From the NCBI GenBank assembly GCA_964630405.1, contig CAZVUC010000017.1:48536-112535 (forward strand): DNA of 64,000 nt, read 5' to 3'. Below are positions 55,511 to 56,878 of this stretch, one piece after another. Source of the DNA: an uncultured Syntrophobacterales bacterium (lineage in GTDB: Bacteria; Desulfobacterota; Binatia; UBA9968; JAJDTQ01). The first letter of the stretch is position 1; each line of letters opens with the position of its first letter. A program made the position numbers and the translations under genes. The notes below the pieces were generated by a model, which was given only the letters and a program-made list of their open reading frames with translations, was not told the origin of the DNA and ran no database searches.

Positions 55511-56878
55511 TCAACGTTTCCCGCCGAATGCTCCCACCAGGTCCGTCCGCTTCACGGTGCCGGCCATGCCCTCGTGCTTCGGGCCCATGAACGCTCCGAC
55601 CACGTGTCCATTACCGTTGGTGTTCCAGAAGCCGTTGCCGATCACATGAACGTCGTAGTCTATGTTCCTTTGGGGGAACCACTTGTCGTCGTCTTGGTCG
55701 AAGCGGTTGACGAAGAAGATGTCGCGGAATCCGAGCTGGCCCTGGAGGGTCCGTAGATTCACCTCCAACCTCGTGTCCCCCATGAGGGGCGATATCCCGG
55801 AGAACCCCACCATCGCGCCCTCCCAGGTAACGGGTCCAACCGTCAGCTCGGGATTGTCCTTCAGCTCCATCTCCGGCATGGGCCCGCGGGCCCAGGGTTG
55901 CGGGAGCCCGTTGAAGAGCGCCACCCCGAAGTTCACGATGCCGTCATCCGTTGTTGCGGCCAGGTGCAGGGTTGTATCGGTCCACTCCCCCCAGGTGTTG
56001 TAGTGTGCCGGGACCTGCTCCATGTAGATGGCCTGGAGAACTTCCTTGTCGATGCGGTGAAGGACGAATCCGGGGTTGGGGAACATCTCGCCCGCCACCC
56101 CCATGATCGAGTCGGGGAACTGGACGCTTTCCACGTGGCCCCAAACTCCGAGGGCATGGATCAGCTCGTGGAGGATCGTGGAGTATGAGAAGGTGTAGCC
56201 GCTCTCGTGCAGGTCCTTCGGCAAATGCACCACCGAAGAGAATGTGTTTCTCCCGATCCTGTACCGGTCGGCACAGGCTACGGCATCGGCGCTACACGGA
56301 CTCGCGATGGAGGCACCTTCCCATGAGGAAACCAAGACGCTCCCCTCCTGACGCCGAAGTCTGTTGAACTCCGTAGCGGTGTCGAAGGTCCCGGCGATCT
56401 CGATTTGAAACTCCGGGGGAAGGACATCGTTCAGGATTGCCACGCTTCCCAGTATGTTCTGAAGGAGGGGCAGGGTAGTGTCGCCCCTGATCCACAGGCG
56501 GGGCCTCACCCTGAATGGATGGAGTCCGTCTGTGTATTGGGCTCCTTCCCTTCTCTCCAAATCGGCCTTGTAGTCACTGAGTCGCCAATACCCGACACCG
56601 TCGCGGGATGCCCCCAGGGATACCTCGATGTCCCCAGGCAAAAGCCCGGGCCACTTGCGGAGCTTCTCCTTCGGCTCTACGTCAGCCCCGATGTGGTACG
56701 TGTTGCCCCAGTAGAACCAATGAGAGCCGGTGGCGTGTGGATAGGTGGGACGTACATATCCCGGGTTGGTGTACCCTATGGGAGCTTGCGGCGTTGTGCC
56801 CCTCGGTTCATCCAGACCTCTCCCACCGCAGGCCGACACAACCAGCACGAGGACGAGCGCACAGAGTACGTGTTTCAT
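55511..56878 (-). CDS. Lipoprotein: metzincin-like domain plus TbpB-like C-terminal barrel (paralog 2)
   Basis: Lipobox LVVSAC; HELIHALGVWGH zinc motif with Met-turn candidate SIMGV; C-terminus ...TDLVGAFGGKR; same architecture as 42245..43609; GGAGG RBS. Confidence 0.65.
   Translation of the reverse strand: MKHVLCALVLVLVVSACGGRGLDEPRGTTPQAPIGYTNPGYVRPTYPHATGSHWFYWGNTYHIGADVEPKEKLRKWPGLLPGDIEVSLGASRDGVGYWRLSDYKADLERREGAQYTDGLHPFRVRPRLWIRGDTTLPLLQNILGSVAILNDVLPPEFQIEIAGTFDTATEFNRLRRQEGSVLVSSWEGASIASPCSADAVACADRYRIGRNTFSSVVHLPKDLHESGYTFSYSTILHELIHALGVWGHVESVQFPDSIMGVAGEMFPNPGFVLHRIDKEVLQAIYMEQVPAHYNTWGEWTDTTLHLAATTDDGIVNFGVALFNGLPQPWARGPMPEMELKDNPELTVGPVTWEGAMVGFSGISPLMGDTRLEVNLRTLQGQLGFRDIFFVNRFDQDDDKWFPQRNIDYDVHVIGNGFWNTNGNGHVVGAFMGPKHEGMAGTVKRTDLVGAFGGKR

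Follow-up and report, generated by a model that had tools for sequence, protein, structure and literature searches.

Slam-dependent surface lipoproteins (TbpB, LbpB, fHbp, NHBA, HpuA, the hemophilin HphA, and PmSLP) combine an N-terminal lipobox and a flexible tether with a C-terminal eight-stranded barrel that ends in G-x-F-G-G/A-x-R/K. Metzincins (matrixins/M10, astacins/M12A, adamalysins/M12B, snapalysin/M7, and archaemetzincin/M54) have a HExxHxxG zinc helix, a conserved Met-turn, and a C-terminal helix after it. Insertion sequences (ISs) that carry passenger genes were defined as transporter ISs (tISs) in a paper that describes the IS1595 family and its relation to IS1 (Siguier, Gagnevin & Chandler 2009, as cited in PMC3129680); in tISs of the two families, one DDE transposase gene accompanies passenger genes unrelated to transposition, all enclosed by short terminal inverted repeats and flanked by an 8-bp target duplication. 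sRNA-Xcc1 is an RNA borne by integrons, transposons, and plasmids of Xanthomonadaceae that lies upstream of symE in Xanthomonas cassettes. Here we describe a gene that shares features with each of these, open reading frame A (ORF A), in a 64,000-nt stretch of contig CAZVUC010000017.1 (assembly GCA_964630405.1) from an uncultured Syntrophobacterales bacterium of the Binatia; we refer to the whole stretch as the window. We consider it probable that ORF A is a transposon-borne, zinc-protease-like lipoprotein cassette and that its homologue in the window, ORF B, was acquired separately; from sequence and models we infer that the protein is proteolytic and exposed and that its gene is regulated in cis. 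Analogues are known for every component; within the libraries and literature searched, their combination and the leader RNA are new, and literature searches on a metzincin/TbpB fusion, Slam-dependent proteases, and a sponge link returned nothing relevant.

ORF A is a passenger of an IS1-family tIS. The gene is enclosed by a 3,991-bp element (54889..58879) with perfect 18-bp terminal inverted repeats and a flanking 8-bp direct repeat, a pairing with a joint chance expectation of ~2e-9 in the 4.7-kb region. The target-site duplication of IS1 is 8-9 bp. Because ORF A lies between perfect terminal repeats with a target-site duplication, it arrived by transposon, which bears out the horizontal transfer suggested by an earlier, sequence-only reading of this DNA. 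The repeats start with GGTAGTG, in agreement with the GGnnnTG end motif of the IS1 family (PMC6807381), and the window holds no other close match to them. The earlier reading had also remarked on low-GC surroundings, an IS1-family transposase, and a perfect inverted repeat near the gene. All three were recovered: the G+C content shows a real but modest drop (0.599 within the element versus 0.660 for the window), the transposase passes its Pfam cutoff (Table 1), and two perfect inverted repeats are present, namely the terminal repeats and a 12-bp palindrome between ORF A and the transposase gene. The G+C content at third codon positions (GC3) is 0.77 in ORF A versus 0.92 in flanking genes.

The element separates an amidohydrolase gene from a cupin gene in a genome of high G+C content, most likely that of a sponge-associated member of the Binatota. 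A contig in Logan (L001) is identical to the window over 54619-59250, and the empty-site sequence GATACCCTATCAAATGGCGGAACCGCCCGAATCC was not found in any fetched locus. The transposase gene, separated from ORF A by a 715-bp spacer, encodes a protein that matches NCBIfam NF033558 (transpos_IS1; E 1.4e-17) with 64.3 bits, below the cutoff of 100. An IS1 InsAB'-type programmed frameshift was rejected on reading the sequence: the upstream ORF (57440..57673) lacks a zinc-finger motif, and its relative frame is the wrong one. One of two further small ORFs inside the repeats, at 54970..55175, has no Pfam match and no relative in any fetched locus. Unlike the tISs outlined above, this element has as its passenger a lipoprotein cassette with its own leader, and one cargo family travels on two IS families in different phyla.

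Table 1. Positions of features in the window and, for loci labelled L, in the fetched contigs.
Feature	Position	Strand	Details
ORF B, 454-aa lipoprotein gene	42245..43609	+	Remote homologue of ORF A
Left target-site duplication copy	54881..54888		AATGGCGG (8 bp), directly outside terminal repeat
Left terminal inverted repeat	54889..54906	+	GGTAGTGCGTCAGTTTGA (18 bp); 18/18 complementary to 58862-58879
Small passenger ORF	54970..55175	+	68 aa from ATG after AGGAGG; longest ORF from TTG 54903
Terminator-like hairpin	55454..55486	-	15 pairs, then T-run; 24 nt downstream of ORF A stop codon
ORF A, 455-aa lipoprotein gene	55511..56878	-	ORF call, alignment, and AF2 model
ORF A disordered linker	~residues 18-42		AF2 model
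ORF A zinc-peptidase-like domain	~residues 45-290
ORF A TbpB-like beta-barrel	~residues 300-455 (nt 55514-55981)
Conserved structured 5' leader RNA	56948..57090	-	3' end 69 nt upstream of ATG; paired core ends ~92 nt upstream
Promoter-like site	57119..57147	-	TTGACA-17 nt-TAGCGT, read from sequence; faces leader and ORF A
Perfect 12-bp palindrome	57141-57152 and 57164-57175 (arms)		GTGTCAACCCTA-11 nt-TAGGGTTGACAC; between ORF A and transposase gene
IS1-family DDE transposase	57594..58370	+	Single ORF, 258 aa; PF03400, 37.1 bits, cutoff 24.1
Small passenger ORF	58556..58840	+	94 aa
Right terminal inverted repeat	58862..58879	-	18 bp
Right target-site duplication copy	58880..58887		AATGGCGG
IS1595-type element	L003, Binatia contig		4,261 bp; IS1595 transposase and 642-aa homologue; inverted repeats 23/24; 8-bp duplication TCTGCTTT
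IS1595-type element	L008, contig of L003, 170 kb away		100% identical to the L003 element; inverted repeats 23/24; 8-bp duplication ACATCATA
IS1595-type element	L005, 'bacterium'		3,740 bp; perfect 24-nt inverted repeats; 8-bp duplication TTTTCTTT
IS1595-type element	L024, Alphaproteobacteria		3,704 bp; inverted repeats 23/24; 8-bp duplication AAAAGTTT
Leader instance	L003, 9822-9962
Leader instance	L005, 9860-9975
Leader instance	L008, 5075-5212	-
Leader instance	L012, 9822-9964
Leader instance	L014, 8196-8329	-
Leader instance	L016, 9644-9780
Leader instance	L019, 20100-20239
Leader instance	L022, 9859-9974
Leader instance	L024, 9801-9934
Leader instance	L025, 9822-9969
Leader instance	L027, 7168-7299
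Leader instance	L070, 8154-8284	-

The ORF A protein is a lipoprotein in which a divergent metzincin-like zinc site (HExxHxxGxxxH plus Met-turn) is fused to a beta-barrel of the TbpB/NHBA/hemophilin type. The ORF and the four motifs that had drawn attention to it are real: a signal peptide with the lipobox LVVSAC at residues 12-17 (with Cys17 as the lipobox cysteine), the zinc motif HELIHALGVWGH at residues 237-248 (nt 56135-56170), the Met-turn SIMGV at residues 257-261 (nt 56096-56110), and the C-terminus TDLVGAFGGKR at residues 445-455. In an alignment of 47 relatives, His237, Glu238, Gly244, His248, Cys195, Cys202, and many barrel residues are invariant, as are D256, S257, and G260 of the DSIMG turn, and Cys17, His241, and Met259 are at least 90% conserved. 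The AF2 model (predicted local distance difference test score, pLDDT, 82.9; predicted template modelling score, pTM, 0.81) suggests an alpha/beta N-terminal domain whose order of elements would fit a metzincin, with an active-site helix at 228-242, a short turn helix at 255-258, and a C-helix at 269-286 ahead of a barrel that begins at ~300. Astacin, M10, and reprolysin models match ORF A below threshold and at the HExxH motif alone, and a Foldseek search of the PDB gave a weak match of the N-terminal domain to a tolloid-like astacin. Like the metzincins, ORF A has a HExxHxxG zinc helix, a Met-turn downstream of the third zinc ligand (DSIMG in ORF A; RLMG in ORF B), and a predicted C-terminal helix after it; unlike them, it is probably lipid-anchored and is fused to a TbpB-type barrel.

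The barrel is the better-matched half. Foldseek paired it with TbpB, NHBA, and hemophilin HphA in the PDB at E 4e-4 to 8e-4 (probability 1.0). Sequence searches stayed below threshold: Pfam TbpB_B_D (PF01298) matched ORF A at E 0.012 and 16.5 bits, below the cutoff of 26, the NHBA barrel in the PDB was a sub-threshold match at E 0.16, and NCBIfam NF041636 (slam_lipo) scored 16.1 bits, under its cutoff of 80. Across the family, however, PF01298 is hit at E<=1 in 37 of the 47 members, with 3e-13 as the best value. ORF A thus shares lipobox, tether, and the G-x-F-G-G/A-x-R/K barrel end with the Slam-dependent lipoproteins and differs from them in that the module before the barrel is a zinc-peptidase-like domain, not a ligand-binding 'handle'.

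A word-indexed search found 254 relatives of ORF A, the best non-identical one at 58% identity, and an exhaustive profile search found 958 clusters (at 50% identity) with E<=1e-3, 308 of them with E<=1e-30. These clusters include large multidomain proteins in which only the module from zinc helix to barrel matches. In giant relatives such as P0192 (4,105 aa, 14 matched stretches), P0206 (1,992 aa), and P0193 (1,595 aa), this module or the barrel alone is repeated or stands at the C-terminus. No relatives were found in IMG/VR viral contigs or in PLSDB plasmids. Scanning one genome per species gave 30 loci, whose metagenome-assembled genomes (MAGs) are labelled Ca. Binatia, Ca. Entotheonella and Tectimicrobiota, Alphaproteobacteria, Gammaproteobacteria (including Ca. 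Poriferihabitaceae, order Arenicellales), Terriglobia and Bryobacterales (Acidobacteriota), Nitrospirales (Nitrospirota), and Dehalococcoidia (Chloroflexota). The family occurs in at least seven phylum- or class-level lineages, with relatives 42-58% identical to ORF A. Many of the loci lie on Mb-scale contigs, and several genomes have two copies.

When the neighbouring ORFs of the 30 loci were clustered all against all, no functional neighbour proved to be conserved; the recurrent neighbours are mobile-element genes, with at least one transposase or integrase within 10 kb in 21 of the 30. IS1595 transposases were found at 8 loci, tyrosine integrases at 5 and at 4, IS3 and IS6 at 4 each, IstB and IS4 at 3 each, and IS1 in the window and at L023. 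IS1595-type transposons, each bounded by inverted repeats and an 8-bp duplication of its own, carry at least four other family copies (Table 1). A third divergent paralogue (460 aa, HEMLHSMGMDGH ... LAAGFGGER) is encoded at L008 3732..5114 on the minus strand, 3 kb from an IS1595 element, so that the L003/L008 Binatia genome holds at least three family members. Copies in different phyla can be close: such pairs reach 73-90% aa identity at synonymous divergence (dS) of 0.15-1.2. A Dehalococcoidia and an alphaproteobacterial copy are 90% identical (dS 0.15; one contig of the pair is short), a Terriglobia and an alphaproteobacterial copy 74%, and a Binatia and a Terriglobia copy 73%. Gene-wide ratios of nonsynonymous to synonymous divergence (dN/dS; Nei-Gojobori, ORF A family pairs) were 0.12-0.24 at dS 0.3-1.9, with 0.5-0.6 in the two closest pairs; these values indicate purifying selection on the family.

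The IS1 vehicle is itself part of a larger population. The 18-mer end GGTAGTGCGTCAGTTTGA occurs at no fewer than 120 places in JGI metagenomes (L035-L154), with unrelated outer flanks and diverse interiors. An IS1-like transposase 41-66% identical to that of the window lies nearby in 21 of the 120 fetched loci, and a relative of ORF A or ORF B in none of them. The many ends with unrelated flanks and no ORF A or ORF B indicate a widespread IS group, of which the window element is a cargo-carrying derivative; the exact pairing of ORF A cargo with the IS1 vehicle was seen in the window and in the identical contig L001 only. Two side observations concern this population. Pairs of 18-mer ends stand back-to-back with almost nothing between them at L096, L130, L066, and L113. 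One abundant group lacks an IS1-like transposase, and its inner ends are identical for >50 nt on both sides (L111, 1,191 bp; L108, 2,184 bp); such copies may be non-autonomous derivatives.

ORF B has the same architecture as ORF A, as had been claimed: an LLVTGC lipobox, a canonical HEMGHVLGLSHD zinc motif, an RLMG Met-turn, and a TbpB-like barrel with the C-terminus ...VGAFGGRL. In its model (pLDDT 68) the barrel is confident and structurally matches LbpB, TbpB, hemophilin, fHbp, NHBA, and PmSLP, and the ORF B family profile weakly matches snapalysin, karilysin, matrix metalloproteinases, fragilysin, and adamalysins at the zinc helix. The distant similarity of the two proteins also stood. BLASTP aligned the C-terminal 112 aa only (28% identity, E 2e-10), and hhalign joined the two families at 99.8% probability (E 5e-28) in a 207-column alignment that starts at the zinc helix and runs to the C-terminus; their N-terminal ~230 residues do not align. 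The claim that they are paralogues accordingly holds just as remote homology, beyond the short motifs, and fails as local duplication. The genome of L032 is collinear with the window over 18570-33537 at 83-92% nucleotide identity and has an ORF B-type gene as a 1.5-kb insertion (7902-9442), at a point where the window is empty (26229/26267). In L034, a copy of ORF B that is 93.5% identical shares with the window only 42235-43605 and adjoins a phage-type integrase; directly upstream of the copy lies a 419-aa member of a third subfamily that is 26% identical to ORF A (E 1e-30). As ORF B-type genes occupy differing sites in collinear relatives and the two genes belong to separate subfamilies, we conclude that ORF A and ORF B belong to one mobile lipoprotein-protease superfamily and were acquired independently of each other. 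No further copy was found in the window by tblastn.

Around ORF B, a search for inverted repeats and duplications found nothing transposon-like. Smaller features of its surroundings were seen in passing. A tandem CTAGTGAGAC x2 precedes ORF B (window 42188-42208), a similar TGAGACCTAGT follows the L034 copy, and a palindrome resembling GACAGGCGGGTTTCAAACCCGCCTGTC is found close to the ORF B-type copies of L032 and L034; these palindrome and short-repeat motifs do not recur in the window. In L034, 8704-13000 holds the 419-aa member in tandem with the ORF B orthologue (92% identity), then the phage-type integrase and a 2,680-aa Calx-beta/cadherin/fn3 protein, and looks like an island of host-interaction genes.

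Upstream of ORF A lies a leader element of ~140 nt, predicted to form three nested helices with loops GAAUACAA and GGYGAAUA and an extra hairpin GGGGUAGCUCCCC. In blastn searches, this stretch is 82% identical to one in L008 that precedes the 460-aa paralogue and 75% identical to that upstream of the L003/L008 homologue, and it is more conserved than the coding sequences. Iterating nhmmer gave 12 distinct instances, to which a covariance model contributed two more (L005 and L022); the hosts are Binatia, Alpha- and Gammaproteobacteria, Nitrospirales, and two unclassified 'bacterium' MAGs. We folded the 12 sequences with RNAalifold, using slid partners and 500 shuffles as controls. Standard pairs form in 90.1% of alignment cells versus 36-50% with partners slid, the covariation score is 0.324 versus 0.08-0.12, and nine pairs show compensatory change, a number that none of the 500 shuffles attained. 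Many instances also have, after the closing helix, a second stretch complementary to its 3' strand, which would permit an alternative hairpin. We suggest that the leader may be a new cis-regulatory RNA family.

Its closest described counterpart is sRNA-Xcc1 (RF02221). Both nest the same parts in the same way, with a long helix closing the structure around a second helix, an internal loop AAUACAA, a short innermost helix, and a segment GAAUA, and both stand on mobile DNA upstream of a gene. The leader scores 26 bits where the gathering score is 53, the match requires insertions of 33 nt and 14 nt, and none of seven further leader instances reached the gathering threshold. The leader differs from sRNA-Xcc1 in its extra hairpin and insertions, in the family of its downstream gene, and in its host phyla. 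A promoter-like site lies ~30 nt upstream of the first leader helix and overlaps the 12-bp palindrome, and alignment places a -10-like box at an equal distance upstream of the leader in other instances; a consensus scan did not report the site because its -10 box matches just 3 of 6 positions. The palindrome carries TTGACA on both strands, folds with z = -3.9, and could be a shared operator for divergent promoters.

Several observations weigh against our reading of ORF A. No Pfam or NCBIfam peptidase model reaches threshold with the protein, its family profile retrieves neither a metzincin nor any peptidase from the PDB, and the Foldseek match of its N-terminal domain to archaemetzincin is weak (E 0.11, probability 0.82). 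The zinc motif is non-canonical: ORF A and its family have HExxHxxGxxxH (H237, H241, G244, H248; HExxHxxGxxGH in the metzincin comparison), with the third His one residue later than in the metzincin consensus HExxHxxGxxH/D. The known export route of TbpB-like lipoproteins is likewise not evident, since Pfam scans of the ~50 other genes of the window found no Slam (DUF560) and no TonB-dependent receptor, and neither is a conserved neighbour in the 30 family loci; the same scans found no gene for an outer-membrane protein, and metabolic and transport genes only. Several of the host phyla, which include non-proteobacterial ones, are not known to have Slam. MAG binning can misplace mobile DNA, which affects short contigs such as L018 and L014 and not those of Mb scale. 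Finally, a sponge or host association of the family is suggested by MAG names and one paper, in which sponge Binatota are said to have formerly been called Deltaproteobacteria (PMC9999580); members of the ORF B cluster are labelled 'Deltaproteobacteria bacterium'.

These points feed two other views of the protein. It might be an active zinc peptidase that faces the periplasm, from the inner membrane or the inner leaflet of the outer membrane, and acts on envelope or imported peptides. The missing Slam-type translocator and the hosts without known Slam agree with such a location, and the invariant Cys pair would suit any extracytoplasmic compartment; yet all solved structures that the barrel matches (TbpB, LbpB, fHbp, NHBA, hemophilin, PmSLP) are surface-exposed or secreted, the long disordered tether is typical of surface lipoproteins, and housekeeping envelope peptidases are seldom multi-copy transposon cargo across phyla, so we consider this unlikely. 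Very unlikely, in our judgment, is that the HExxH domain serves as a metal- or ligand-binding module, either in a hemophore- or zincophore-like scavenger or in a pseudo-enzyme adhesin, with the barrel as scaffold as in hemophilin. The shifted third His, the lack of a passing peptidase model, and the fact that the relatives of the barrel bind and do not catalyse are what one would expect of it. The invariance of Glu238, His237, and His248, the conservation of His241 and the Met-turn, and the fully canonical metzincin motif retained by ORF B and many relatives argue the other way, and no TonB-dependent receptor partner is nearby. We therefore keep to a zinc-protease-like lipoprotein whose surface exposure is suggested by analogy with its barrel relatives and whose protease activity is suggested by its conserved residues.

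Two further alternatives concern the genes and the leader. The sequence-only reading took ORF A and ORF B for in-genome paralogues, a small family diverged under diversifying, immune-like selection and possibly phase-variable in expression. Their common architecture and true homology, their position 12 kb apart, the atypically low GC3 of both (0.64 in ORF B versus ~0.9 in its neighbours), and the perfect inverted repeats speak for it, but each has far closer relatives elsewhere (58% for ORF A, 92% for ORF B) than the other copy, ORF A is transposon cargo with a target-site duplication, and the site of ORF B-type genes varies between collinear genomes. Diversifying pressure is at odds with the membership of different subfamilies and with the gene-wide dN/dS values above. 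Phase variation was rejected: an invertase gene is absent, the long repeats mark the ends of the transposon, and the 12-bp palindrome, which overlaps with promoter-like boxes, resembles an operator or hairpin rather than an invertible switch. This explanation is largely refuted, and what remains of it is highly improbable. For the leader, an independent small RNA gene, as sRNA-Xcc1, or a DNA site for gene capture or recombination is doubtful as an alternative to a cis leader, though of the competing views it has the most to recommend it: the element resembles sRNA-Xcc1, reported to be a trans-acting sRNA carried by integrons, transposons, and plasmids, and it always travels with mobile DNA. 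The element nonetheless always lies in sense orientation directly before a family gene (10-11 of the first 12 instances precede an ORF of the superfamily, and those of L005 and L022 do so as well), a promoter-like box stands just upstream of it, and two helix positions are dominated by U-G pairs, which would be C-A mismatches on the other strand and so favour a single-stranded sense transcript.

The ORF A passenger forms a self-contained expression unit of promoter-like site, ~140-nt leader, lipoprotein gene, and terminator-like hairpin. The leader probably regulates ORF A in cis, with alternative folding possible through the second complement. Lipidated at Cys17, the protein would be tethered to a membrane by a flexible linker of ~25 residues; its N-terminal domain would be an active metzincin-type zinc endopeptidase, as sequence and model suggest, and its C-terminal barrel, of a type that carries ligand-binding surfaces and the export signal in TbpB, LbpB, fHbp, NHBA, hemophilin, and PmSLP, would bind the target or aid surface delivery. 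The likeliest job of such a protein would be to cleave extracellular proteins, host-derived or from neighbouring microbes. Usefulness in an animal-associated community would keep the family under purifying selection while transposons move its genes between phyla. A more ambitious version, which we hold to be quite unlikely, is that promoter, leader, and lipid-anchored zinc protease/barrel make up a self-regulating host-interaction cassette that at least two tIS families shuttle between phyla sharing animal hosts, with the leader as a new ligand- or signal-responsive RNA switch, a distant and expanded relation of sRNA-Xcc1, and the barrel serving Slam-independent surface display or host-protein capture in phyla not known to have such a pathway.

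No paradigm is changed by these findings. They describe an uncharacterised family in which the TbpB-type barrel, so far the scaffold of host-protein-binding lipoproteins in proteobacterial pathogens, is fused to a metzincin-like domain far outside the Proteobacteria, and they give sequence-level examples of the spread of an accessory envelope gene in a presumably animal-associated community as the cargo of two tIS families. 'Convergent' gene content of symbionts thereby becomes testable as transposon-mediated transfer. The leader adds a candidate cis-regulatory RNA tied to the ORF A family and related to sRNA-Xcc1, which is itself mobile-element-borne and poorly understood.

Elsewhere in the window, a second G+C dip (0.53-0.56) at 50800-51600 contains ORFs without Pfam match (50163..50729, and 50892..51608 overlapping 51009..51584) and may be another foreign insert. 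A DUF4143/AAA_14 ATPase gene lies amid metabolic genes at 7988..9397 on the plus strand; genes of this type are often linked to mobile or defence contexts.

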